Shown piece after piece: positions 1 through 60,808 of a stretch of DNA of 64,000 nucleotides (position 1 is the first letter of the stretch; every line of letters begins with the position of its first letter). Both the position numbers and the translations under genes were made by a program. Origin of the DNA: Escherichia coli (GTDB lineage Bacteria; Pseudomonadota; Gammaproteobacteria; Enterobacterales; Enterobacteriaceae). The notes below the pieces were generated by a model, which worked only from the letters and a program-made list of their open reading frames with translations, was not told the origin of the DNA and searched no databases. Location: NCBI RefSeq assembly GCF_044324875.1, contig NZ_CP172185.1, one strand, 5' to 3'.

Positions 1-108
1 TATCCTGGCGAAGCCGCGTCAGTAACATATGCTGAATAGTGTTAGGCGTTAATTTTAGCCTGTTAATCAATACTATTAAGATTTATTAATCGCTTTAAGG
101 AGAAGATG

Positions 109-336
109 ATGAAAAAGACTGCCGCAATTATTTCTGCCTGTATGCTGACTTTTGCCCTGAGCGCCTGTTCCGGTTCGAACTATGTGATGCACACCAATGA
201 CGGACGTACCATCGTCTCTGACGGCAAACCACAGACTGATAACGATACCGGTATGATTTCGTATAAAGACGCTAATGGCAACAAACAGCAGATCAACCGT
301 ACTGACGTGAAAGAGATGGTCGAACTGGATCAGTAA
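109..336 (+). CDS. ygdI: small lipoprotein YgdI (DUF903 family)
   Basis: 75-76 aa ORF with lipoprotein-type signal (LSAC lipobox); AGGAG at 98-102; ATG at 106 is an alternative start; lies next to gcvB as in K-12. Confidence 0.8.
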
Positions 337-352
337 TTCGCGATCGCAAGGT

Positions 353-558
353 AAAAAAAAGCACCGCAATTAGGCGGTGCTACATTAATCACTATGGACA
401 GACAGGGTAAATGTACAGGAAGTGAAAAAAGGTAGCTTTGCTACCATGGTCTGAATCGCAGACCAATTGCAAACACAACAACACAACATCACAACCGTAA
501 GCCAAAAGTTCACCAGAACACGCATTCCGATAAAACTTTTCGTTCCGGCTCAGGAAGT
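353..558 (-). ncRNA. gcvB: GcvB small regulatory RNA
   Basis: Reverse complement of 353-558 reads ACTTCCTGAGCCGGAACGAAAAGTTTTATCGGAATGCGTGTTCTGGTG...GCACCGCCTAATTGCGGTGCTTTTTTTT, which I recognise as GcvB including the GU-rich region and terminal hairpin plus U-run; divergent from gcvA. Confidence 0.9.
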
Positions 559-686
559 GCCGCCACTATAGGTATTTGCTGGTAGAAGCTCAACGGACAA
601 TTTATAATGGCTCAGATTAAAAAAACTAATAGGTTACACAGTGTGATCTAATTGTTAAATTCATTTAACATCAAAGTTTAAAAGCC
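559..686. promoter_or_regulatory. divergent gcvA/gcvB promoter region
   Basis: AT-rich 128-bp spacer between the gcvB 5' end (558) and the gcvA start (687); role inferred from position. Confidence 0.5.
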
Positions 687-1604
687 ATGTCTAAACGATT
701 ACCACCGCTAAATGCCTTACGAGTTTTTGATGCCGCAGCACGCCATTTAAGTTTCACTCGCGCAGCAGAAGAGCTTTTTGTGACCCAGGCCGCAGTAAGT
801 CATCAAATCAAGTCTCTTGAGGATTTTTTGGGGCTAAAACTGTTCCGCCGCCGTAATCGTTCACTCCTGCTGACCGAGGAAGGGCAAAGCTATTTCCTCG
901 ATATCAAAGAGATATTTTCGCAATTAACCGAAGCGACGCGTAAACTCCAGGCCCGTAGCGCCAAGGGGGCGTTGACGGTCAGTTTACTCCCCAGTTTCGC
1001 CATTCATTGGTTGGTTCCGCGACTTTCCAGCTTTAATTCAGCTTATCCGGGAATTGACGTTCGAATCCAGGCGGTTGATCGTCAGGAAGATAAGCTGGCG
1101 GATGATGTTGATGTGGCGATATTTTATGGTCGGGGCAACTGGCCGGGGCTACGGGTGGAAAAACTTTACGCCGAATATTTATTGCCGGTGTGTTCGCCGC
1201 TACTGCTGACTGGCGAAAAACCCTTGAAGACCCCGGAAGATCTGGCTAAACATACGTTATTACATGATGCGTCACGCCGTGACTGGCAGACATATACTCG
1301 CCAATTGGGGTTAAATCATATCAACGTTCAGCAAGGGCCAATTTTTAGCCATAGCGCCATGGTGCTGCAAGCGGCTATTCACGGGCAGGGAGTGGCGCTG
1401 GCAAATAACGTGATGGCGCAATCTGAAATCGAGGCCGGACGTCTTGTTTGCCCGTTTAATGATGTTTTGGTCAGTAAAAATGCTTTTTATCTGGTTTGTC
1501 ATGACAGTCAGGCAGAACTGGGTAAAATAGCCGCCTTTCGCCAATGGATCCTGGCGAAAGCCGCTGCTGAACAAGAAAAATTCCGCTTTCGTTATGAACA
1601 ATAA
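687..1604 (+). CDS. gcvA: LysR-family glycine cleavage system transcriptional activator GcvA
   Basis: 305-aa ORF; N-terminal HTH MSKRLPPLNALRVFDAAARHLSFTRAAEELFVTQAAVSHQIKSLE matches GcvA. Confidence 0.95.
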   Translation: MSKRLPPLNALRVFDAAARHLSFTRAAEELFVTQAAVSHQIKSLEDFLGLKLFRRRNRSLLLTEEGQSYFLDIKEIFSQLTEATRKLQARSAKGALTVSLLPSFAIHWLVPRLSSFNSAYPGIDVRIQAVDRQEDKLADDVDVAIFYGRGNWPGLRVEKLYAEYLLPVCSPLLLTGEKPLKTPEDLAKHTLLHDASRRDWQTYTRQLGLNHINVQQGPIFSHSAMVLQAAIHGQGVALANNVMAQSEIEAGRLVCPFNDVLVSKNAFYLVCHDSQAELGKIAAFRQWILAKAAAEQEKFRFRYEQ

Positions 1605-1622
1605 TTTACGTAGGGTACGACC

Positions 1623-2018
1623 ATGACCAGCCGTTTTATGCTGATTTTCGCCGCCATTAGCGGCTTCATTTTTGTGGCTCTGGGCGCTTTTGGCGCGCAT
1701 GTGTTAAGTAAAACCATGGGGGCCGTTGAGATGGGCTGGATCCAGACCGGTCTCGAATACCAGGCGTTCCACACGCTGGCGATCTTAGGTCTGGCGGTGG
1801 CAATGCAGCGTCGCATCAGTATCTGGTTTTACTGGAGTAGCGTTTTCCTCGCGTTAGGCACGGTGCTGTTCAGCGGCAGCCTTTATTGCCTGGCACTGTC
1901 CCATCTGCGTTTGTGGGCGTTTGTCACTCCGGTTGGCGGCGTGAGCTTCCTTGCGGGCTGGGCGTTAATGTTAGTTGGTGCTATCCGTTTAAAACGCAAG
2001 GGCGTAAGTCATGAATAA
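1623..2018 (+). CDS. ygdD: DUF423 inner-membrane protein YgdD
   Basis: 131-aa hydrophobic ORF; overlaps the rlmM start by 8 bp; synteny. Confidence 0.85.
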
Positions 2019-3111
2019 GGTTGTATTGCTGTGCCGTCCGGGCTTTGAAAAAGAGTGCGCCGCAGAAATTACCGATAAAGCCGGCCAGCGGGAAATTTTC
2101 GGTTTTGCCCGCGTGAAAGAGAATGCGGGTTATGTGATTTATGAATGTTATCAACCTGATGATGGCGATAAGTTAATCCGTGAGCTGCCGTTCAGTTCAT
2201 TAATTTTTGCCCGCCAGTGGTTTGTAGTGGGGGAACTCCTGCAGCATTTGCCGCCAGAAGATCGTATTACTCCCATTGTCGGCATGTTACAGGGCGTAGT
2301 AGAGAAGGGCGGTGAACTGCGTGTTGAAGTTGCCGATACCAACGAAAGCAAAGAGTTGCTGAAATTCTGCCGTAAATTCACCGTGCCGCTACGCGCTGCC
2401 TTGCGCGATGCGGGTGTGCTGGCGAACTATGAAACGCCGAAGCGTCCGGTTGTGCATGTATTCTTTATTGCACCAGGCTGCTGCTATACCGGTTACTCAT
2501 ACAGCAACAATAATTCGCCGTTCTATATGGGCATTCCGCGCCTGAAATTTCCGGCAGATGCGCCGAGTCGTTCCACGCTCAAACTGGAAGAGGCATTTCA
2601 TGTGTTTATTCCTGCGGATGAGTGGGATGAACGCCTGGCGAACGGGATGTGGGCGGTGGATTTAGGCGCTTGCCCAGGCGGCTGGACCTACCAACTGGTG
2701 AAGCGCAACATGTGGGTTTATTCCGTCGACAACGGCCCGATGGCGCAAAGTCTGATGGATACCGGACAGGTGACGTGGCTGCGGGAAGACGGTTTCAAAT
2801 TCCGTCCGACACGCAGCAATATCTCCTGGATGGTATGCGATATGGTTGAAAAACCGGCGAAAGTTGCGGCATTGATGGCGCAGTGGCTGGTTAATGGCTG
2901 GTGCCGTGAAACCATTTTCAACCTCAAACTGCCGATGAAAAAACGCTACGAAGAAGTGTCACACAATCTGGCGTATATTCAGGCACAGCTTGATGAACAT
3001 GGCATAAATGCTCAGATCCAGGCGCGGCAGTTGTATCACGATCGCGAAGAAGTGACGGTGCACGTCCGCCGTATCTGGGCTGCGGTGGGTGGTCGTCGCG
3101 ACGAGCGATAA
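2011..3111 (+). CDS. rlmM: 23S rRNA 2'-O-ribose C2498 methyltransferase RlmM
   Basis: 366-aa ORF beginning [16 protein letters not shown]; length and synteny match RlmM (YgdE). Confidence 0.9.
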
Positions 3112-3154
3112 CAGGCAAGGCCGGGGCGTCGTCTCCGGCCTGCTACCCTTTCCG

Positions 3155-3886
3155 TCAGGCTGTTACCAAAGAAGTTGCAACCTGGCGCTCATCAGAAATA
3201 ATGTGCGTTACCTCATCCAGATGCCCGATGCGGGCTTCCCCTGAACGATTAAATTTACTTTTATCAATCAATAACAACGATTGCGCGGCGCGTTTTAATA
3301 GCATTGATTTGTAATCAGCGTTGATGGCATTGGAGTCCCACAGTGCGCCGCTGCTATCGATCCCTTCACAAGAAAAAATAAACAGATCGATTTCCAGCGA
3401 TTTAAGTTGAGAAATCAGCGAGGGATTGACGTAACAGCCATATTTGCGCTCAAGTGTGCCGCCGGAACTGATCAGTTGAATGCGTTCGCGTTTACCGAGT
3501 TCATGGCAAATCGGATGGCTATTGGTGAAGACCTGGATGTTGATGTCAGGCAACTGGCGTGCCAGATACCAGCAGGTTGAACTTGCGTCTAAGGCTATTA
3601 CCATCCCTTCTTCAATCCACGCGAGCGCCTCGCGCGCGATATCTGCTTTATGCGCATAATGGCTTTTCAGCCGGATGTGAAAGGGATCGCCACTGTCTTG
3701 ATTTTGACGGTGGATATATTTAGCGCGCCCATGATTGCGCAGAATTTTACCCTGCGTCTGTAATTCATTGAGATCGCGACGAATGGTTTCTTTACTGACC
3801 TTTAGCTGTTCAGAGAGAGCTTCCGTGGTCAGGCTGGTATGGTTCAGCAGCAGGTCGACTATCGCTTGCTGGCGTGCCGCTTTCAT
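3155..3886 (-). CDS. fucR: DeoR-family L-fucose operon activator FucR
   Basis: ORF runs to 3895 (MKNMKAARQQ...); K-12 FucR begins MKAARQQAIVDLLLNHTSL, so start at 3886 is preferred; DeoR HTH plus sugar-binding domain. Confidence 0.9.
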   Translation of the reverse strand: MKAARQQAIVDLLLNHTSLTTEALSEQLKVSKETIRRDLNELQTQGKILRNHGRAKYIHRQNQDSGDPFHIRLKSHYAHKADIAREALAWIEEGMVIALDASSTCWYLARQLPDINIQVFTNSHPICHELGKRERIQLISSGGTLERKYGCYVNPSLISQLKSLEIDLFIFSCEGIDSSGALWDSNAINADYKSMLLKRAAQSLLLIDKSKFNRSGEARIGHLDEVTHIISDERQVATSLVTA

Positions 3887-3943
3887 ATTTTTCACCCCAT
3901 CATTCGATAACCGCCCGCGTCATGCGGGCGTACCGGTATGAGA

Positions 3944-4366
3944 TTACGGTGTTACCCCTTTTTTTAAAAGAATATTCCCGTACTTCGCTCGTTCGCCTGT
4001 GATAACGATCGCAAAGGCTTTTTGTGCCCGTTCATAAAACGCAAAACGATTGATGCGGATGATGTCAGGACACGGGGCTTGTAGTGAAAGCGCATTACGG
4101 TAACGTCGTTCTACTTCAGGATCGAGAGTGTCACCTTCTACCGCCGCCATCATCACCAGCGGCGGTGCATAACTGTCCAGTTCAAATAACGGGATAATCG
4201 CCTGGAGCAAGTCGCTCACCAACAGGCCATCAGCGCGGATCACCTGCGGTCCCATCGAATGGGCGGGAAAGTGAGCATCGGAAAAAATAATTTCATCTCC
4301 ATGCCCCATCTCTGCCAGCACTTTCAATAGTTCGGGAGAAATTAACGGCGAAATTGTTTTCAGCAT
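3944..4366 (-). CDS. fucU: L-fucose mutarotase FucU
   Basis: 140-aa ORF in the fucPIKUR operon; RbsD/FucU family. Confidence 0.9.
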
Positions 4367-4367
4367 T

Positions 4368-5786
4368 TCACACTTCCTCTATAAATTCAGGTTCAGTTTG
4401 CGGGTAGAAATAACGGTACTGATAATGAATCTGCGCGCGGGCTTCTTCCGGGCTGTTAAATTCCCCTACGCCATACCAACCGAACAGCGCAGCTCCTGCG
4501 ACGGTCGTTTCTGCGTCGTCGAGAACTTTTACCGGAATATCAAGCATATTGGCTTTAATCTGATTCCACAAAGTGTTGCGACTTCCTCCGCCGACTAACA
4601 ATAATTCAGAGGCTTTAAAGTGCCCGATTTTTTCCAGCATCTGTAGATTGCGCTGTAATTGCTCAGTTAACCCTTCCAGCGCCGCGCGATAGAAATGCCC
4701 CCGCGTGGTATTAAGCGTCACTCCTTGCCAGCCAGCGTTCTGACACGACAATAAATCACACTGCATTTTCACACCATCCGCGCCAGGTGCGATCAGACGA
4801 GCCTCTTCAATCAACATTTGCCAGGGAGTTTCAGCCGTCCAGAACAGTTTTCTCACCCATTCCAGCACGCCGGATGCCAGCCATTGCATACCTGGGTTAT
4901 ACAACCCTGCCTGACTATCCAGTTCGCAGGTGGAACCGGCATACTGACTTAACAGCGAAGTATCAACCTGGGCGCTACGGACCATTAAAATTTCCCATGT
5001 ACCGGAAGAGAGCACGGGTTCATTTTGTTCAGCACCAGCGCCAAAAAGGGCGAACTGGGTATCGTGACCTGCGGAAATCACCGGTATGCCAACGGGTAAG
5101 CCGAGCATTGCTGCGGCGCTGTTCTGTAACGTACCAATCTGTTCACCCGCTTCCACCAGACGAGGGAAGAGGCGGCGTGGAATACCGGTGGCGTGTAAAA
5201 TTTGCGGACTGAAATCGCGTTGCTGGATATCCAGCATCTGGCTGGTTCCGGCCATCGTGATATCAGTAGTGAATTCGCCGGTTAAACGGTGGTTAATCAG
5301 CGACGAAATAAAGAGCCAGGCGTGCGCGCGTTCCAGCAGTTGTGGATGATTTTCTTTCAACCACACCAACTTATATAACGTATTGAAACTAAAGGCTCCG
5401 ACGCCAGAAATAGCCTGCAACTGCTGTGCGGAGATCAACCGTTCAATATTGTCCATTACCGCTGCTGTTCGCGGACATTTCCAGCTAATGATCGGATAGA
5501 GCAGATTGCCTTGCTTATCTACCAGAGCGCCATCCACACCAAAGGTGGTGACGGCGATACCGCGGATGTGGCATTCAGTCAGTTCACTATTGATTTGCCG
5601 ACAGCAATCAGCAAAGCGTTGCAAAATGGCGTCTAAAGACCACTGGTGCCAGGTGGTGTTTTCCATCGCGATATCGCTGGCATTAGGCGTTGAGGCGCGG
5701 GCAACAATTTTTCCCTGCCGATTAACCGCGATGGCCCTGACATTGGTCGCGCCACAGTCGAGTACCAGGATAACTTCTTGTTTCAT
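4368..5786 (-). CDS. fucK: L-fuculokinase FucK
   Basis: FGGY kinase; ORF runs to 5816 but [21 protein letters not shown] at 5786 with an upstream AGGAG is the likely start. Confidence 0.9.
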
Positions 5787-7670: not shown

Positions 7671-7702
7671 TACAGATTCCTCACTTTATTCGGAAAATAT
7701 GT

Positions 7703-9019
7703 TCAGTTAGTTGCCGTTTGAGAACGGAAACGGGCAAAGATAAAGATGACCGCGAAGCAGAGTGCGGGGATCAGTTCAGCAGTGGGGATGTTGCCCGCCG
7801 CGTCACTGACAAAACCCATGACCGGAGTGACAATACCGCCGCCAATAATGGTCATAACGATGAAGGACGAACCGTATTTGGTGTCCTGGCCGAGATTCTT
7901 AATGCCCAGCGAGAAGATTGTTGGGTACTGAATCGACATAAAGGCACTGCATAATGTCAGGGCTATTAAGCCCACATGACCGCCAGCGAAGGCTGAGATC
8001 AGGCACAGTGCCATAGCGATTAATGCGTAGGCTGCCAGGACTTTGTGTGGTGCGAAGCGACTGATGAGCCAGGTACCGGTGAAACGACCAATAAAGAAGC
8101 ACACCATGGTTCCGGTTAAATAGTTAGCGGCAAAGCCTGCGGTCATACCTGGAATTTCTTCTACAGCGTAGCGAATCAAATAGCTCCAGCAGGCCGTTTG
8201 CGCGCCGACATAGCAGAATTGCGCTAATACCGCCCAGCGCCAGTGACGAATACGCGCCAGACGAGAAAGCGATGCGGAGAACGATCCTTGTTTGGCGTCA
8301 CTGTGATTATCACTCTGCAATGCCGGGAATTTCGTCAGCATGATCAGCAGGGCGACCAGTAACACGATAGCCACGATGATCATATAAGGTGTCTGTACCG
8401 ATAATACCAGGCTGTGTTTATACGCACTCAATTGCTCTGGAGACATTTTATCGAGAACGTCTTGCGATTGATGTGGCACGTTAGACAAAATAAGACTTTG
8501 CCCAAAGACAACCGCGATAATTGCGCCAAACGAGTTAAATGTTTGCGCAAGATTTAAGCGGAAGTGACCACTGCTTTCCGGCCCTAATACCGTAACAAAA
8601 GGGTTTGCGGCAGTTTCCAGACAACCTAATCCGGCTGCAATAATAAATAGGCCAACTAAAAATAAGGTGTAGTTCATTATTTCTGCAGCGGGCCAGAATA
8701 ATGCAGCGCCCAAGGCATATAAAAATAATCCGGTAATAATCCCTGCTTTATAACTGAGTTTTTTCATCAATATCCCAGCAGGGATTGGGATAATGAAATA
8801 ACCAAAGTAAAAGGCCGATTGGATCAGGCCAGCCTGGAAATTTGTCAGCGTAAAAGCCTGCTGGAATTGAGGTAATAAAATGTCGTTAAGGTTATTGGCT
8901 ACCGCCCAAAGAAAAAACAGTGAGCACAGCAGCGCGAATGGAATAATGTAACTTCTGCTTTGCCCTGCATCTTTATCTACCGCACGGTAACTCTGCGTTT
9001 GTATTGATGTGTTTCCCAT
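7703..9019 (-). CDS. fucP: L-fucose:H+ symporter FucP (MFS)
   Basis: 438-aa polytopic membrane ORF; synteny. Confidence 0.95.
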   Translation of the reverse strand: MGNTSIQTQSYRAVDKDAGQSRSYIIPFALLCSLFFLWAVANNLNDILLPQFQQAFTLTNFQAGLIQSAFYFGYFIIPIPAGILMKKLSYKAGIITGLFLYALGAALFWPAAEIMNYTLFLVGLFIIAAGLGCLETAANPFVTVLGPESSGHFRLNLAQTFNSFGAIIAVVFGQSLILSNVPHQSQDVLDKMSPEQLSAYKHSLVLSVQTPYMIIVAIVLLVALLIMLTKFPALQSDNHSDAKQGSFSASLSRLARIRHWRWAVLAQFCYVGAQTACWSYLIRYAVEEIPGMTAGFAANYLTGTMVCFFIGRFTGTWLISRFAPHKVLAAYALIAMALCLISAFAGGHVGLIALTLCSAFMSIQYPTIFSLGIKNLGQDTKYGSSFIVMTIIGGGIVTPVMGFVSDAAGNIPTAELIPALCFAVIFIFARFRSQTATN

Positions 9020-9565
9020 AGCATCCTCTTAGGTTCAGAAGCTTAAGCACGTAATCGGTTATGTTTTCAAAAGTGCAAAACCAGCGAGTTCGGGCTTCAT
9101 ATCAGTGAATATTTGCCTGTCAGAAATGAACTCATGGATTCATTTTCAAATAAAAAACGCTCTGTAATATGACGGCGGTCACACTTATTAGCTGGGAGGT
9201 GACTTTATGTGACTACCATCACTTTAATAATCGAAATTTCATGCCCGTTTCAGAAAATAAATCATAAAAAACACAAACCCGATGACCGTATTAATTGTTT
9301 GTGCCGAAAACGGGCATTTCTGGCGAGGGGGAATGGAAAAATGACCGTTTTGATAAATATTTTTAAGAGCGGTCATTTTTAATAGGGTTATAAAAAGAGA
9401 ACTTGCAGTTATTTACTGTGATTAGTTGAACCAGGTCACAAAATATAAGCTTGTGAATTTCTTTCTGGTTAATCAGGAAGAAGATGGTGGGTAATTAAAC
9501 GGCTAATTCAATAGTGTGAAAGGAACAACATTATTGCCCTGTTTTGAATCAGAGAGAGGTAGCTA
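9020..9565. promoter_or_regulatory. divergent fucPIK / fucAO control region
   Basis: 546-bp AT-rich spacer between divergent operons; repeated TGACCG/CGGTCA motifs (9170-9183, 9282-9289, inverted pair 9341-9347 and 9370-9376) and inverted repeat ATGCCCGTTT (9241-9250) / AAACGGGCAT (9309-9318). Confidence 0.6.
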
Positions 9566-10213
9566 ATGGAACGAAATAAACTTGCTCGTCAGATTATTGA
9601 CACTTGCCTGGAAATGACCCGCCTGGGACTGAACCAGGGGACAGCGGGTAACGTCAGTGTACGTTATCAGGATGGGATGCTGATTACGCCTACAGGTATT
9701 CCATATGAAAAACTGACGGAGTCGCATATTGTCTTTATTGATGGCAACGGTAAACATGAGGAAGGAAAACTCCCCTCAAGCGAATGGCGTTTCCATATGG
9801 CGGCCTATCAAAGCAGACCGGATGCCAACGCGGTTGTTCACAATCATGCCGTTCATTGCACAGCAGTTTCCATTCTTAACCGACCGATCCCCGCTATTCA
9901 CTACATGATTGCGGCGGCTGGCGGTAATTCTATTCCTTGCGCGCGTTATGCGACCTTTGGAACACGCGAACTTTCTGAACATGTTGCGCTGGCTCTCAAA
10001 AATCGTAAGGCAACTTTGTTACAACATCATGGGCTTATCGCTTGTGAGGTGAATCTGGAAAAAGCGTTATGGCTGGCGCATGAAGTTGAAGTGCTGGCGC
10101 AACTTTACCTGACGACCCTGGCGATTACGGACCCGGTGCCAGTGCTGAGCGATGAAGAGATTGCCGTAGTGCTGGAGAAATTCAAAACCTACGGGTTACG
10201 GATTGAAGAGTAA
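9566..10213 (+). CDS. fucA: L-fuculose-1-phosphate aldolase FucA
   Basis: 215-aa class II aldolase ORF beginning MERNKLARQIIDTCLEMTRLGLNQGTAGNVS. Confidence 0.95.
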   Translation: MERNKLARQIIDTCLEMTRLGLNQGTAGNVSVRYQDGMLITPTGIPYEKLTESHIVFIDGNGKHEEGKLPSSEWRFHMAAYQSRPDANAVVHNHAVHCTAVSILNRPIPAIHYMIAAAGGNSIPCARYATFGTRELSEHVALALKNRKATLLQHHGLIACEVNLEKALWLAHEVEVLAQLYLTTLAITDPVPVLSDEEIAVVLEKFKTYGLRIEE

Positions 10214-18777: not shown

Positions 18778-19143
18778 GTCGACAGGGAGTCAGACAACGA
18801 AGTGAACATCAGGATGATGACACTTCTGAAGGACACACCAGGATGGTGTTTCAGGGAAAGGCTTCTGGATGAAGCGAAGAGGATGACGCAGGACGCGTTA
18901 AAGGACACCTCCAGGATGGAGAATGAGAACCGGTCAGGATGATTCGGTGGGTCAGGAAGGCCAGGGACACTTCAGGATGAAGTATCACATCGGGGTGGTG
19001 TGAGCAGGAAGCAATAGTTCAGGATGAACGATTGGCCGCAAGGCCAGAGGAAAAGTTGTCAAGGATGAGCAGGGAGCAACAAAAGTAGCTGGAATGCTGC
19101 GAAACGAACCGGGAGCACTGTGAATACAGTGCTCCCTTTTTTT
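18778..19143 (+). ncRNA. csrB: CsrB, CsrA-sequestering sRNA
   Basis: Begins GTCGACAGGGAGTCAGACAACGAAG; about 20 CAGGA(U)G / GGA motifs across 366 nt; ends with GC hairpin GGGAGCACTGT-GAAT-ACAGTGCTCCC plus T-run (19110-19143); between syd and yqcC as in K-12. Confidence 0.9.
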
Positions 19144-19188
19144 ATTCCTGCTATTCTTCGCGGCAGTTTTTCTTATTGAGGTTGCTTT

Positions 19189-36091: not shown

Positions 36092-36985
36092 TTACCAGCG
36101 ACCGGACGCGCCGCCACCGCCAGAAGAACCGCCCCCGCCGCTAAATCCGCCGCCACTTGAGCCGCCACCGGAAGAGGATGAAGAAGAACCTTTTCTTGAA
36201 GCTCTTTCTTTACTGAGTTTTTTGTATTTGGCGCGTAGCTTTTTATTAACGATAAGCCAAAAAATAACCAGTGGTACGATAGCAAAAGGCGTGAGCATAC
36301 CGCAGGCAACGATTAAATTCGTCCATGGTCCTGGCTCGGCAACATAGAGGAATACCATCCCATAAATTCCGCCAGTCAGTGCTATCCAGGGTAAATTCGA
36401 CGGATCGGTAAAAACAATAAAATATGAAAGTACCGCCAGCAATATAATTACAGCAAGCGATAATGGAATAGGGGGATTGATACTGTAATAATCCCCCCTG
36501 TCTTCCGGTAATTCACCATTCAACAGAAGCGCTCCGATATTTTCGCTTGCCAGTGTTAACCCACCCATCAAGTCATCACTTTTGAAGGCTGGGATTAATA
36601 TATTACGGATAATCTTCGCTGCTTGCAGATCGGTAACCACCCCTTCCAGCCCGTAGCCCACTTCTATACGGACAGCATGATCTTCCCAGGCAACCAGCAG
36701 TAAAATACCATCGTTTCGCTGCTTATCTCCCAGTTTCCAGCTATCAAAAACGCGTGTTGCATATTGTTCAATGGTATCGTCTCCGGTGGATGGCACTATT
36801 AATACGGCGACCTGGGCCCGTGTTTTTTGTGTGATATCCTGCAGCTGTTGTGTCAGTGATTGTTGTTCAGACGTGCTTAACGTACCAGTAATATCGGTCA
36901 CCTGTTGGCGCAGCTCCGGCACAGCAATTTGCTGGGCAAGCCCAGGAAGGCACCATAAAGTAAGTAGAAAAAAGATTAAGCGCAT
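36092..36985 (-). CDS. ygcG: TPM-domain membrane protein (YgcG-like), paralog C
   Basis: 297-aa ORF: signal peptide, TPM/DUF477-like domain, hydrophobic segments, Gly/Ser-rich tail ending GRW; symbol assigned by position next to eno only. Confidence 0.7.
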   Translation of the reverse strand: MRLIFFLLTLWCLPGLAQQIAVPELRQQVTDITGTLSTSEQQSLTQQLQDITQKTRAQVAVLIVPSTGDDTIEQYATRVFDSWKLGDKQRNDGILLLVAWEDHAVRIEVGYGLEGVVTDLQAAKIIRNILIPAFKSDDLMGGLTLASENIGALLLNGELPEDRGDYYSINPPIPLSLAVIILLAVLSYFIVFTDPSNLPWIALTGGIYGMVFLYVAEPGPWTNLIVACGMLTPFAIVPLVIFWLIVNKKLRAKYKKLSKERASRKGSSSSSSGGGSSGGGFSGGGGSSGGGGASGRW

Positions 36986-36990
36986 AATGA

Positions 36991-38139
36991 TTACCAGCGT
37001 CCGGATGAACCGCCGCCTCCTGAAGAACCACCACCACCGCGGAAAGAATTTCTCGACGAAGAGCGAGAATGAGCATTACGATTCCCCGTTTTCCTGTTGC
37101 TTTTTTCTCCTGACCCCAGTTTAAGATTGCCAGTAAATTTGGCCACAATGATCAGCAGAACTATGCCAGCAATGGTTATTGGGCCGATAAAATGATCAAT
37201 TAGCCCAATAATTGTTGAGATGAATGCAATATCTTTATTACTGGCGAACACCAGGCACCATCCCACAATAATTATCAGCATCACGACAAACAATGAATTT
37301 CGTCCTGATTCACGAACCTGCGGAGTCTTCTTTTGTTTTTTCACTTTAGTGTTTTTATTTTTGGGGGCCAGCATCATAGGAAATGCGCGGCACATATTAA
37401 AAACTACCGCGAGACGCTGCCAGCAGGTTGTTGCTAACAATAAACTAAAACAAACGACCGATACCCGCCGAATGATGACATCGTCCTGAAAGGAGAAAAA
37501 CCAGACCATAGGGGTAATCATCGATATCATCCATATGCCACGCCCTGGGCGGCTGGCAAATCGCCAGAGGACAACGATGGCAACGATCATCAGCAGTGTC
37601 CAGGCAAGACAAGGCAGCGAACGTTGCGGATTAGCAAACAGATGATTGGCTAAAGCATCCAAAGGGCTAAGGTTCGCTTTGATATGGGTAAACTGTGCGA
37701 TGCTTTCAATTCCGCCCGTTAATCCAGCAAAGAGATTGTTTTTTTCGAATTCTGGCTGCATATGGTAACGAACAATTTGCGCAGCTTGTTCCGGCGGCAA
37801 CATCTGTTCCAGTCCATGTCCAATCTTCATTGACGCCAGCCCTTCCGGCCATACGACGAGAATTAAGATACCTTCGCCATATCGCTTCTCTCCAACGGGT
37901 TTCCAGTGATATACCCCGTATCTCTGCGAGGCTGCAAGTTTAATGTTTTTGCCCCCTGTGGTCGGCGTGACCAACACGGCCACCTGGAAGTGGTTTTGCT
38001 GCACGAGAGTCTGTAATTGTTGAGTTAAAGCAGTTTGTTCTTCTGTCGTTAATGTCCCGGTTAAGTCAGTTACTGAAGGCAATTGTTCAGCGAATACCTG
38101 AAAACCGCATAGCATCAGAAGTAAGAGAAAAATACGCAT
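36991..38139 (-). CDS. TPM-domain membrane protein, divergent paralog B
   Basis: 382-aa ORF: signal peptide, TPM-like N-domain, several hydrophobic segments, Lys-rich linker, Gly/Ser tail ending GRW; 5 bp upstream of paralog C. Confidence 0.7.
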   Translation of the reverse strand: MRIFLLLLMLCGFQVFAEQLPSVTDLTGTLTTEEQTALTQQLQTLVQQNHFQVAVLVTPTTGGKNIKLAASQRYGVYHWKPVGEKRYGEGILILVVWPEGLASMKIGHGLEQMLPPEQAAQIVRYHMQPEFEKNNLFAGLTGGIESIAQFTHIKANLSPLDALANHLFANPQRSLPCLAWTLLMIVAIVVLWRFASRPGRGIWMISMITPMVWFFSFQDDVIIRRVSVVCFSLLLATTCWQRLAVVFNMCRAFPMMLAPKNKNTKVKKQKKTPQVRESGRNSLFVVMLIIIVGWCLVFASNKDIAFISTIIGLIDHFIGPITIAGIVLLIIVAKFTGNLKLGSGEKSNRKTGNRNAHSRSSSRNSFRGGGGSSGGGGSSGRW

Positions 38140-38153
38140 ATCAATTCCTTTTG

Positions 38154-39047
38154 TTACCAGCGCCCGGAAGCGCCACCGCCACCAGATGAACCGCCACCAC
38201 CGCTGAAATTGTCATTGTTGAATGAAGAGGATGACGATGATGAATAGTGGGAGGAAGAATTGCTTCTTGTATGGCGTGATGGCTGGTTGGCATCACGCAT
38301 CGAATCCCGAACCTTTTTGCCGAAGGGGGTAAAAGCGATGGCGACAGCCAGGAACGGTGTGGCGAAGCAGAGTAATGTTGCGAGTACTCCCCAGCTTCCG
38401 CTGAAGCCTGCTATAGGTAAAACAAAGGCCAGTACAATAGCTGCGAAGCAAATTACTCCCAGCGTTTTGATATATCCTCTGGCAGAAATAAACGTCAGTA
38501 CTATCGCCCAGACTAACAAAGCCCACCAACCGCTAAAAGGCAAAGGGTGATCGGTCGGTGTTATCGTTGCTAAATTATTCCCCGTCAGACGACTTTCAAT
38601 ATCGCTGATTCCCTTTTGCAAACCACCAGCCAGGTCCCCTTTTTTAAATGCCGGAATAATACTGTTGCGAATAATTTTCCCGGACTGTGCATCCGTAATA
38701 ATACCTTCCAGTCCGTAACCGATTTCAATACGCACGGTATGATCCTGCCAGGCGACTAACAGTAGAACGCCATCATCGTGGTCTTTATCACCCGGTTTCC
38801 AGCTATCGAATACCCGCGTTGCGTACTGCTCGATGGTTTCATCGCCTGTTGTTTCAACCACTAACACGACCAACTGTGCGTTGTTTTTTTGCGTCAGGGC
38901 TTTAATCTGGTTGGTCAGGGTGTTTACTTCACTGTTTGTCAATGTGCCGGTTAAGTCATTCACATACCTGGGTGATTCAGGTACTGGAATTTGTGTGGCA
39001 AACACAGATGAACAGAAGAAAGCCATAAGGAAGATAAAATTTCGCAT
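38154..39047 (-). CDS. TPM-domain membrane protein, paralog A
   Basis: Close paralog of 36092-36985; ORF runs to 39077, but the start at 39047 (MRNFIFLMAFFCSSVFA signal peptide, GGAAG RBS) avoids overlapping lemA. Confidence 0.7.
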   Translation of the reverse strand: MRNFIFLMAFFCSSVFATQIPVPESPRYVNDLTGTLTNSEVNTLTNQIKALTQKNNAQLVVLVVETTGDETIEQYATRVFDSWKPGDKDHDDGVLLLVAWQDHTVRIEIGYGLEGIITDAQSGKIIRNSIIPAFKKGDLAGGLQKGISDIESRLTGNNLATITPTDHPLPFSGWWALLVWAIVLTFISARGYIKTLGVICFAAIVLAFVLPIAGFSGSWGVLATLLCFATPFLAVAIAFTPFGKKVRDSMRDANQPSRHTRSNSSSHYSSSSSSSFNNDNFSGGGGSSGGGGASGRW

Positions 39048-39060
39048 ATAACTTCCCCGC

Positions 39061-39663
39061 TTAATGCGCATTAGCATTCTGGCTAAAATCTATTATTGGT
39101 GCTTTACTCACAGCTGCGACGTCATCCGGCAAATAATTTTTCTTCGGTGTGTAATCCATGACCTTTGCGGTTAATACAGCGGGGAATTTGCGGATAGTGA
39201 CATTATATTGTTCAATGGCTTTAATATATCTTCCTCGCGCAACGGCAATTCTATTTTCACTTCCTTCGAGCTGTACCATTAAATTTTGATAGAGTTCCTG
39301 AGCTTTTAAATCAGGGTAACGTTCACTAATTATCGTTAACTGACCGAGAGTGCGAGACACCTGCGCCTGGGCTTGTTGCCAGGCTTGTAATTTTTGCGCA
39401 TCTCCCGGAGCTTGCTGAAGATCGCTACTGGCGCGATTAGCCTGGCTACGTGCCAATGTTACGGCTTCCAGTACCTCTTGTTCATGGCTGGAATAACCTT
39501 TAATACTGGCGACAAGATTAGGAATAAGATCGGCGCGACGTTGATATTGATTCAATACCTCAGACCAGGAGGCGTTAACCTGCTCATCATAGGTTTGAAT
39601 ATCGTTATATCCACAGCCTGATAAATTGGCAATAAATATAATTACGATGAATATCCTGAGCAT
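39061..39663 (-). CDS. lemA: LemA-family lipoprotein
   Basis: 200-aa ORF with lipoprotein signal (LSGC lipobox) and LemA-like helical body; first gene of a four-gene minus-strand operon. Confidence 0.75.
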   Translation of the reverse strand: MLRIFIVIIFIANLSGCGYNDIQTYDEQVNASWSEVLNQYQRRADLIPNLVASIKGYSSHEQEVLEAVTLARSQANRASSDLQQAPGDAQKLQAWQQAQAQVSRTLGQLTIISERYPDLKAQELYQNLMVQLEGSENRIAVARGRYIKAIEQYNVTIRKFPAVLTAKVMDYTPKKNYLPDDVAAVSKAPIIDFSQNANAH

Positions 39664-39835
39664 GTCTATGTCCCTTTTAATTAATTCCTTAAAACATAAT
39701 ACGCCGCTTCATTTTATTCTTTATGATCTCATCCACTTTTTGCCTTAAACCTGCCTGTAACAGAATGTTAATAAGACATGATTGTTGTGGCAGGATCTGC
39801 AATAATTAACAATTATCCACTTCACAGAGAATGCT

Positions 39836-57550: not shown

Positions 57551-57815
57551 AATATCGTACCGCTTAATAAACGTCTCTGTCTGAAAAGATGGGGGCGTTT
57601 TTATTTTGCGAGCAGCATTCCTGATTTTAAACGTGAACGCCGCTGGAAGAATTATCAAGTATAGAATGGCGTTGGGTGCTTGAGGCTGTCTGGCGTTAAG
57701 CATTCGCGAGGTTCCAGATGGACAAAAGCCCCAGGCGATATTTCTATCAACCTGAGGCCAGCGTTCGAACCTAAGCAATTCGAATGTTAGTCTCTTCTTT
57801 GCAGGGAGGCAAGAC

Positions 57816-57968
57816 ATGCTGACAAAATATGCCCTTGTGGCAATCATCGTACTGTGTTGTACAGTACTGGGATTCACGCTGATGGTAGGCGACTCGTTGT
57901 GTGAGTTGAGTATCAGAGAACGTGGTATGGAGTTTAAGGCAGTTCTCGCTTACGAATCGAAGAAGTAG
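57816..57968 (+). CDS. Hok/Gef-family type I toxin (50 aa), possibly the hokX/sokX locus
   Basis: [50 protein letters not shown]: one TM helix, conserved LCE...AYES Hok signature, GGGAGG RBS 6 bp upstream, GC hairpin 57974-57995 after the stop; missing from the ORF track because it is under 60 aa. Confidence 0.7.
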
Positions 57969-58319
57969 CCACCACGCGGGGGTAAAACCCCGCGTATTGA
58001 ATTGTGATGGTTTGGTCTCCTGCACCCTTTTTTAATTTATATTGTTTATGTGAATATTATGCCTATGTTTATTATTCATATATATTACGGATGAAAATTA
58101 TTTGATTATTCATAATGTGCAAAATGGCATCTGAATCGATCGCAGTTTGGCATTCGAATCGATCATGATTTGGCATCCATCTCCGATCACAGTTTGGCAT
58201 CACAATCGATCACGATTTGGCATGCTTCCGATCATTGATTGGCATCCTGCCAGTCACTCCGGGAATTAACTCTTTTCACCACAGTCTCCATTGCCGTGTT
58301 TAAACCAGTGGAGACGTCA

Positions 58320-59885
58320 ATGTCCAGAAAGAGAAAATCCAGGAGCACTATGGAAACCTGTTTTAAGATCCTTCAGCTCAAGTTCGACAAGAAGCTGACT
58401 AACCGTTGTATCGGACTGACGTTACACATCAGCGCCTCAACCGTTTTTGAGGTTCTTGCCCGCTTCAAAGCCTCTTCTCTGTCATGGCCATTACCTGCTG
58501 ATATATCCCATGACACGCTGGAGAAACTCATTTTTCCGCCCAAAGACACCTTTGCATCAGAGCTTGTAATGCCTGACATGTTGTACTTCGATACGGAAAT
58601 GAGAAAACCAGGTGTGACGCGGCAACTGTTGTGGATGGAATACAAGGCACAGGCGGGTAACAAAGCGATGGGATACTCGCACTTCTGCCGTTGCTACCGG
58701 GAGTGGAAAAAAACGCGACGTCTCTCCATGCGCCAGGAGCATCGTGCCGGCGAAAAGCTTTTTATCGACTTCTGTGGTCCTACGGTTCCTGTTATTAATC
58801 CGGACACCGGTGAGATACGCCGCGTGGCAATCTTCGTGGCCGTAATGGGGGCGTCCAACTATACCTACGTTGAAGCGTGCGAAGGTCAGGACATGATGTC
58901 ATGGTTAAATGCCCACAGCCGTTGCCTGACCTTCCTGGGCGGCGTACCGAAGCTGCTCATCCCCGATAACCTCAGAAGCGCAGTGAAAAAGGCCGATCGA
59001 TATGAGCCTGTCATCAACGACAGTTATCAGGCACTGGCTGAGCACTATGGCACGGTTATCATCCCGGCCCGACCACGCAAACCTAAAGATAAACCAAAAG
59101 CAGAAAACGGCGTCCTCATCGTTGAACGATGGCTTCTTGCCCGCATCCGTAATGAAACCTTCCACACGCTCAGGGCGCTGAATGCGCGCCTTAGGGAGTT
59201 ACTGACAGACATGAATAACCGGCCAATGAAGGGGTACGGCAATCAAACCCGTGCAGAACGCTTCCGCATACTGGATGCGCCAGCACTCTCTCCGCTGCCT
59301 CTGGCACCTTATGAATACACGGAATACAAAGCTGTGAAGGTTGGCCCTGACTACCACGTTGAATATGCCCGTCACTGGTACTCCGTTCCACACGAACTGG
59401 TCGGTCAGCGTCTGTCACTGAAGGCGGGGCAGTCGGTGGTACAGCTCTGGCACAAGGGGCAGTGTGTGGCGCAACATCCGCGCAGCACACATGAATATAA
59501 ACACACAACCAATCCGCTTCACATGCCAGAGCGCCACCGGCAGCACGGGACATGGACACCGGAACGCCTGATCGAGCAGGGAAAACGTACGGGCCCGTCC
59601 ACAGGCCGGGTGGTTGAATCCATGCTGAAGGCAAAACCCCATCCGGAACTGGCTTATCGTGCAGTTCTGGGGCTGCTGGCACTTCAGAAAAAATACGGCC
59701 CGGAACGGCTGGAAAAGGCCTGTTACGTTGCCCTGCACTATAACGCCCCTGACAGACGCTTTATCGACAATCTGCTGCGTCACCATCGGGAGAACCTGGA
59801 GCTTCCATTATCCCGCCAGGGCGAACAACATCCGGCATATGCTTCAGAGCATGAAAACCTGCGTGGTCCGGGCTACTACCACTGA
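58320..59885 (+). CDS. istA: IS21-family transposase IstA
   Basis: N-terminal HTH and DDE integrase core; start at MSRKRKSRS (58320) with GGAG RBS preferred over the ORF-track start 58239. Confidence 0.8.
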   Translation: MSRKRKSRSTMETCFKILQLKFDKKLTNRCIGLTLHISASTVFEVLARFKASSLSWPLPADISHDTLEKLIFPPKDTFASELVMPDMLYFDTEMRKPGVTRQLLWMEYKAQAGNKAMGYSHFCRCYREWKKTRRLSMRQEHRAGEKLFIDFCGPTVPVINPDTGEIRRVAIFVAVMGASNYTYVEACEGQDMMSWLNAHSRCLTFLGGVPKLLIPDNLRSAVKKADRYEPVINDSYQALAEHYGTVIIPARPRKPKDKPKAENGVLIVERWLLARIRNETFHTLRALNARLRELLTDMNNRPMKGYGNQTRAERFRILDAPALSPLPLAPYEYTEYKAVKVGPDYHVEYARHWYSVPHELVGQRLSLKAGQSVVQLWHKGQCVAQHPRSTHEYKHTTNPLHMPERHRQHGTWTPERLIEQGKRTGPSTGRVVESMLKAKPHPELAYRAVLGLLALQKKYGPERLEKACYVALHYNAPDRRFIDNLLRHHRENLELPLSRQGEQHPAYASEHENLRGPGYYH

Positions 59886-59901
59886 CAGAAGGAACAACAG
59901 T

Positions 59902-60657
59902 ATGAGTGATAACCTGTTAAACAAACTGACCCAACTGAAACTCCCGGCGATGGCCGGGAGCCTGATACGGCAGCGGGAAACGCCTCAGACCTACGACGAA
60001 CTGTCGTTCGAGGAAAGGCTGACGCTGCTGGTTGATGACGAGCTTCTGAGCAGGGAAAACAGCCGTGTGGCACGGTTGAGAAAAAATGCCGGCCTGAAAT
60101 ACCAGGCAACACCGGAAGGGCTGCGCTATCCGGCCTCAAGAGGTCTGCGGGCTGAACAGATGAGAGAACTGCTGAACGGCCACTACATAACCCACAGGAA
60201 AAACCTGCTGATAACCGGTCCGACAGGATGTGGCAAGAGCTGGATAGCCAATGCGCTGGGCGAACAGGCATGTCGACAGAAACACAGCGTCCGGTACTGT
60301 AGAACCGGGCGATTACTGGAACAACTGGCTCAGGGACGTGTTGATGGCAGCTGGCTGAAATATCTGAAACAGTTGCAAAAAATACAGGTTCTAATCCTGG
60401 ACGATCTGGGGCTGGAACAGTTAAGTAACGCCCAGTGTAATGACCTTCTGGAGCTCATAGAGGATCGTTACGGACAAAGCAGCACGATAGTGGTAAGCCA
60501 GTTCCCGGTAGATAAATGGCATGGTCTGATGGAGAACCCAACAACAGCAGATGCCATCCTGGACAGACTGGTACATAACTCACACCGAGTGGTCCTTCAG
60601 GGAGAGTCACTGAGGAAAAATCCCCCGGTAGTGGAAAGCAGCGAAAAAACGCGTTAA
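59902..60657 (+). CDS. istB: IS21-family ATP-binding helper IstB
   Basis: 251-aa form MSDNLLNKL... with Walker A GPTGCGKSW and Walker B LILDDLG; ORF-track start 59659 overlaps istA. Confidence 0.85.
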   Translation: MSDNLLNKLTQLKLPAMAGSLIRQRETPQTYDELSFEERLTLLVDDELLSRENSRVARLRKNAGLKYQATPEGLRYPASRGLRAEQMRELLNGHYITHRKNLLITGPTGCGKSWIANALGEQACRQKHSVRYCRTGRLLEQLAQGRVDGSWLKYLKQLQKIQVLILDDLGLEQLSNAQCNDLLELIEDRYGQSSTIVVSQFPVDKWHGLMENPTTADAILDRLVHNSHRVVLQGESLRKNPPVVESSEKTR

Positions 60658-60808
60658 AAAGCGGTAGAAAAAGTTAAGTTCCCGGTTGATCGAATGGATG
60701 CGAATCGCTGATCGGACTTCGATGCCAATCCGTGATCGAATAGAGCGGAATACGCACATAATGTAAATATTTTATTGAACGATATATATCACAGATAATT
60801 TTTAATAT

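Follow-up and report, generated by a model that had tools for sequence, protein, structure and literature searches.

The minus strand at positions 353..558 of a 64-kb stretch of Escherichia coli DNA carries gcvB, the gene of a known small RNA

Introduction

In this work we have analysed a stretch of Escherichia coli DNA of 64,000 nucleotides, referred to below as the window, and we conclude with a probability of about 98% that the minus strand at 353..558 is occupied by gcvB, which encodes the trans-acting, Hfq-dependent small RNA (sRNA) GcvB of E. coli. The gene is already known and well studied, and its letters in the window are those of K-12. The identity of the gene, its structure and conservation, and its synteny were all observed directly, and so was the complementarity between its R1 region and the leaders of dppA and gltI. 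What is known of GcvB is left unchanged by this result, which matters here for correct annotation only. An annotation track based on open reading frames (ORFs) would mark this stretch with a spurious ORF of 97 amino acids, and PGAP has omitted gcvB from at least one close E. coli strain: the RefSeq PGAP annotation of strain 7/2 (NZ_CP023820.1) has no gcvB feature, though the sequence there is 100% identical, and this omission is an annotation gap and no sign that the gene is absent.

Identification of gcvB

Using cmscan with bases 1-5000 against all Rfam families, we obtained a match to RF00022 (GcvB) on the minus strand at 353..558, which scores 199 bits (gathering score 42), has an E-value of 8.8e-48, well outside the range of chance, and covers model positions 1-204 out of 204, and a scan of the whole window at gathering thresholds returned the same GcvB match. 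The gcvB gene of K-12 MG1655 (b4443; NC_000913.3 2942696..2942901), which the record of that genome places as an ncRNA between gcvA and ygdI, agrees with the window at 206 of 206 nucleotides and has the same ends. The first-pass annotation, made from the letters alone, had claimed a full-length GcvB on this strand and had named the Rfam model and an alignment to K-12 gcvB as the ways of checking it; the claim held on both counts, the model being matched over its full length at exactly the coordinates proposed and the alignment being 100% identical along all 206 nt and at both ends.

In the coordinates of the RNA, position p lies at window position 559 - p, with +1 at 558 and the last U at 353. 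The assignment of +1 is independently confirmed by the literature, since G156, G160 and C162 of the window GcvB coincide with the named positions of published point mutants in the R3 region (PMC9299463). The locus is almost universal in the species: in a megablast search with window positions 1-700 as the query it was found in 5425 of 5426 complete E. coli genomes, in 5385 of them at an identity of at least 99%. This ygdI-gcvB-gcvA query was without a match in just one of the 5,426 genomes, and one of its matches lay on a plasmid.

Could the 3' third of this stretch, 353..424, belong to the Hrs13 family (RF02631) as an sRNA in its own right, and not to GcvB? The cmscan output did contain an Hrs13 match on the minus strand at exactly these positions, with 28.1 bits and an E-value of 5e-4. 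However, this score is well under the gathering score of 52, the match rests mostly on the terminator hairpin and the U-tail, and the same bases are fully covered by the much stronger full-length GcvB match of 199 bits. We consider a separate Hrs13 identity very improbable and have set it aside as a weaker description of the 3' end of GcvB.

Structure of the RNA

The stem-loops and linkers of GcvB were defined by projecting the consensus structure of RF00022 onto the window sequence, in which 46 of the 47 model pairs are standard pairs. The MFE fold of the RNA has -62.1 kcal/mol, compared with -47.1 +/- 4.1 for 200 dinucleotide shuffles (z = -3.63), and all five stem-loops, SL1 to SL5, were recovered in it. 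From the 5' end, SL1 (500..550, RNA nt 9-59), which has the Rfam structure, covariation and the MFE fold behind it, is followed by R1, a single-stranded G/U-rich seed of 34 nt that is unpaired in the Rfam structure (466..499, nt 60-93), and then by SL2 (447..465, nt 94-112), for which the same three lines of evidence hold as for SL1. SL3, with a tail of six U residues, forms the internal terminator t1 (425..445, nt 114-134, the hairpin being nt 114-128); it was found by covariation and by the terminator scan, which on the minus strand reported a terminator-like site with GGTAGCAAAGCTACC at 445..431 followed by TTTTTT. The conserved single-stranded region R2, UUUUUUCACUUCCUGU (415..430, nt 129-144), is unpaired in the Rfam structure and nearly invariant. 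SL4, placed from the Rfam structure (382..414, nt 145-177), carries R3 in its loop, with the core of R3 at about nt 150-165 (394..409). The RNA ends with SL5 and eight U residues, the Rho-independent terminator t2 (353..381, nt 178-206, the hairpin being nt 178-199), for which the minus-strand scan reported a stem of 8 bp with six G-C pairs at 381..360, then TTTTTTTT and a T8 tail. The window gcvB thus has the U-tailed Rho-independent terminator, a 3' module typical of Hfq-binding sRNAs, together with the internal t1. All of these elements lie on the minus strand.

The two terminators are known to yield RNAs of about 130 and 206 nt, and t1 has been described as functional (PMC1557403), with some 90% termination at this site in E. 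coli according to Urbanowski et al. 2000 as cited there. Later work treats GcvB simply as an RNA of ~200 nt, in which R1 is the main seed and R2 is also named as a seed (PMC9299463).

Conservation across Enterobacterales

An exact-pattern scan with the R1 core, using one genome per species, gave 120 loci, and nhmmer confirmed a GcvB homologue in 106 of them, all in Enterobacterales. The remaining 14 pattern matches were chance occurrences in unrelated taxa and were left out. The window copy and 91 distinct full-length homologues were brought together in an alignment of 92 sequences. In this alignment the R1 core GTTGTGATGTTGTGTTTGC and the loop of SL4 are invariant, as is nearly the whole of nt 134-170, which comprises R2 and the SL4 loop with R3; the stem of t2 is likewise invariant in the 91 homologues.

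When the Rfam structure was counted directly on the 91 homologues, 86.7% of the cells were paired, as against 35-49% when the partners were slid by one to three columns. Changes on both sides occurred at 16 pairs, a number equalled by only one of 500 shuffles, and they are concentrated in SL1-SL3: nine of the 13 pairs of the SL1 apical helix, four of eight in SL2 and three of six in SL3. Covariation therefore supports SL1, SL2 and SL3; for SL4 and the terminator the columns are either invariant or uninformative. The exact pairing of SL4 is not established by these data, since its stem shows no covariation and is paired at 78% across species, and RNAalifold puts a different pairing inside the invariant block of nt 134-170. 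RNAalifold on the MAFFT alignment returned only SL1, the terminator and this alternative pairing; SL2 and SL3 escaped it, as their helices are misaligned across clades by MAFFT, and the direct count of the Rfam structure outperformed it.

We also observed that the length of the R1 seed varies in whole units of 8 nt of G/U sequence. The Enterobacteriaceae proper (E. coli, Citrobacter, Enterobacter, Klebsiella and others) have one unit more than Yersinia, Serratia, Proteus and Photorhabdus, and Tenebrionibacter intestinalis (L122:2225-2425) has yet another extra 8-nt unit. As the length changes by whole units, the seed seems to have grown by tandem duplication.

Neighbouring genes and the control region

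On one side of gcvB lies gcvA, which encodes a LysR-family regulator of 305 aa on the plus strand at 687..1604 (Pfam HTH_1 and LysR_substrate; RefSeq annotation). The two genes are divergent and have one common control region, with 129 nt between +1 of gcvB and the ATG of gcvA. The divergent arrangement, which had been described as intact, is indeed so in the window and is conserved across Enterobacterales: a divergent gcvA homologue was found upstream of gcvB in 95 of the 96 loci with a match, at a median distance of 129 nt, and the one exceptional locus has a partial gcvA alignment in the same orientation. Among the related loci with at least 1.2 kb of upstream sequence there was no case in which gcvA was absent.

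The control region contains a sigma-70-like promoter for gcvB on the minus strand at 565..593, identified by a consensus scan, with the -35 hexamer TTGAGC (593..588), a spacer of 17 nt and the -10 hexamer TATAGT (570..565). The +1 at 558 is 7 nt downstream of the -10 hexamer, and from this position relative to the annotated 5' end we infer that it is the promoter in actual use. Comparison of 95 Enterobacterales loci showed both hexamers to be at least 95% conserved and the control region at 549..631, which includes them, to be conserved at 80-95%; in the same comparison 632..686 was poorly conserved. Beside the gcvB promoter is a conserved block at 594..631 (column identity of at least 80-95% across the 95 loci) with TATAAT (603..608, plus strand) and AAAAAACTAATAGG. 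Judging from its position, and from the work of the Stauffer laboratory, this block is probably the GcvA operator together with the gcvA promoter, both putative.

On the other side of gcvB is ygdI, a convergent gene on the plus strand at 109..336 for a DUF903 lipoprotein of 75 aa, which is supported by the Pfam match to DUF903 (E 7e-24), the RefSeq annotation and the excess of substitutions at third codon positions. The GcvB terminator had been said to abut the ygdI stop, which is fair wording: with the end of ygdI at 336 and the last U of GcvB at 353, the stop codon and the end of the RNA are 16 nt apart. Adjacency to ygdI was observed in 72 of the 106 loci and is missing in 32 loci that have room for the gene, mainly in Morganellaceae, Photorhabdus/Xenorhabdus and Edwardsiella; unlike the linkage to gcvA, it is therefore clade-specific.

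Where does the transcription of ygdI end? The answer is not obvious from the sequence, since the scan reported no plus-strand terminator after ygdI and there is no T-run on the plus strand after the t2 hairpin (TACATTAATC). Between the ygdI stop and gcvB (337..385) the t2 hairpin is the sole hairpin, with a run of eight A residues on its ygdI side. It is conceivable that this hairpin (360..381) acts as a bidirectional terminator that also ends ygdI, given the A8 run that flanks it and its distance of only 16 nt from the ygdI stop. Convergent transcription of ygdI could then modulate the formation of the GcvB 3' end or the abundance of the RNA. We regard this possibility as improbable.

Open reading frames overlapping gcvB

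The ORF list contains two minus-strand frames that touch the gene, and the rival reading of this region is that one or other of them encodes a protein. The first, of 97 aa, runs through 76..369 from a TTG start within the terminator loop of gcvB. The title of the first-pass annotation had called gcvB antisense to this ORF, which was mistaken, as both are on the minus strand and have only the 17 nt of 353..369 in common; it is ygdI to which the ORF is antisense. The second frame, of 46 aa, lies within gcvB at 385..525, and its AUG is in the variable apex of SL1. Both frames are mechanically present, but neither had a match in the Pfam search, whereas ygdI on the opposite strand was recognised there as DUF903.

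The alignment of 34 ungapped ygdI orthologues bears on the longer frame. Their differences from the window number 270, 94 and 996 at the first, second and third codon positions of ygdI, and position 1 of the 97-aa frame is position 3 of ygdI. Since this most variable position (996) coincides with its first codon position, where substitutions are concentrated as a result, the 97-aa frame is without protein-level constraint. The equivalent frame is free of stop codons in 19 of the 34 orthologues, but it is interrupted by a stop in the other 15, including that of E. albertii. The earlier statement that this ORF is not a gene is thus borne out by the lack of a Pfam match, by the stops in orthologues and by substitutions that track the ygdI frame.

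For the shorter frame it may be said that it is open at 44-46 codons in 33 of the 92 homologues. However, its ATG is without a spaced Shine-Dalgarno sequence and is retained in only 54 of the 92, the open frame that follows it varies between 9 and 46 codons, and the frame is shifted by the 8-nt indel in R1. Moreover, E. coli GcvB has been reported not to be translated (PMC1557403). Together, the substitution pattern, the stops in orthologues, the lack of a family match and the frame-breaking indels lead us to reject both ORFs as genes, and there is hardly any chance that the region encodes a protein. GcvB would be a dual-function RNA if the 46-aa frame were translated in E. coli and the species closest to it, but we consider this even less likely than the bidirectional action of t2. 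The reading of 353..558 as the sRNA gene gcvB is retained, and no feature of the sequence speaks against it.

Target pairing and regulation

The pairing of GcvB with its targets was examined by a duplex test on the seed regions only, as full-length RNAduplex runs of GcvB against leaders gave meaningless end-to-end duplexes. R1 alone paired with the K-12 dppA leader at -44..-10 (core ACAACAAACAUCACAAUUGG) at -29.9 kcal/mol, and seven of 500 shuffles were as good; with the K-12 gltI leader at -77..-41 (core AACAACACAAACACUCACAAC) the energy was -38.7 kcal/mol, which none of 500 shuffles equalled. The core of SroC, GGACAGAC, is complementary to GUCUGUCC of GcvB over 8 nt (nt 157-164), but in this crude duplex test the energy of the R3-SroC duplex was no better than that of shuffled controls, of which 151 of 500 were as good, so the SroC step described below rests on the literature.

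According to that literature, gcvB is activated by GcvA with glycine and repressed by GcvA and GcvR without it, and GcvB together with Hfq represses a large regulon, made up of metabolic enzymes and of transporters for amino acids and peptides. It acts mostly via R1, and R2 and R3 serve for some targets, namely cycA, phoP and lrp. SroC, which is processed from the 3' UTR of gltI, pairs with SL1 and R3 and triggers the decay of GcvB by RNase E (all PMC9299463, PMC1557403).

As these papers concern the identical K-12 gene, we would expect the expression, Hfq dependence, glycine regulation and target effects of the window GcvB to be the same (PMC9299463, PMC1557403). The RNA would start at 558 from a sigma-70 promoter placed back to back with that of gcvA; GcvA would activate its transcription when glycine is plentiful, and GcvA with GcvR would repress it otherwise. 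The transcript would end either at t1 (about 130 nt) or at t2 (206 nt). It would then base-pair with the CA-rich 5' leaders of transporter and biosynthetic mRNAs such as dppA, oppA, gltI and cycA, mainly through the single-stranded R1 and also through R2 and R3, and would thereby block translation and lower the stability of the mRNA. The sponge RNA SroC would be expected to counteract GcvB by pairing with SL1 and R3.

Other features of the window

Strain 7/2 was considered as a proxy for annotation of the whole window but was dropped. It is 100% identical over window positions 1-700, but it is a different strain, with 96-99% identity elsewhere and four structural differences. One of these is a segment of about 2.6 kb at 58118..60757, between hok/sok and cas3, which is absent from strain 7/2. 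Two ORFs of 548 and 332 aa overlap there on one strand, the latter with a Walker A motif (GPTGCGKS), and a degenerate 23/47-bp tandem repeat (58125..58246) lies at the left edge; the segment looks like an IS21-family istA/istB element, for which we consider it a candidate. At the fuc locus, ~1.9 kb of the window (7683..9587), which probably correspond to fucP as found in K-12, take the place of a 6.8-kb cassette in strain 7/2 that encodes an ABC transporter, an FGGY kinase and a LacI regulator. A further difference in length is seen close to the queE-ygcE orphan CRISPR region, with 3.5 kb in the window (36173..39694) against 0.9 kb in strain 7/2, and the IS1397 copy that strain 7/2 carries near ygcP is absent from the window.

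The window holds other RNA genes as well. The plus strand carries a full-length CsrB sRNA at 18787..19146, in its usual place beside syd; its score with RF00018 is 383 bits (gathering score 71). Also on the plus strand, between cysH and cas3, is a chromosomal hok/sok locus of the type I toxin-antitoxin class (57674..57968), with the sok antitoxin RNA at 57674..57831 (RF01794, 112 bits) and a Hok/Gef-like ORF of 50 aa at 57816..57968. A Twister-sister ribozyme match on the plus strand at 3108..3201 scored below threshold (24.2 bits where the gathering score is 34; E 0.06 for the 5 kb scanned); it starts at the stop codon of rlmM, has several non-standard pairs and is most likely due to chance.

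Comparison with known GcvB

How does the window copy compare with the GcvB genes already described? In K-12, gcvB (b4443) has the same neighbours, with ygdI convergent and gcvA divergent, and its promoter hexamers and two terminators are those of the window. A comparison of 2.25 kb gave 22 differences between the window and K-12, none of them in gcvB; two, at 639 and 682, are intergenic and fall in the poorly conserved stretch that separates the conserved control block from the ATG of gcvA. The GcvB RNAs of Salmonella, Yersinia pestis, Serratia, Proteus and Photorhabdus have the same layout of five stem-loops as the window copy and share with it the invariant R1 core, R2, the SL4 loop, the terminator and the divergent gcvA. 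They differ from it in that Yersinia, Serratia, Proteus, Photorhabdus and similar genera are without one 8-nt G/U unit of R1 that is found in E. coli and its close relatives, and in other Enterobacterales the SL1 apex, SL2 and SL3 have diverged from the window via compensatory changes. In many of these other genomes, ygdI is not the gene downstream of gcvB.
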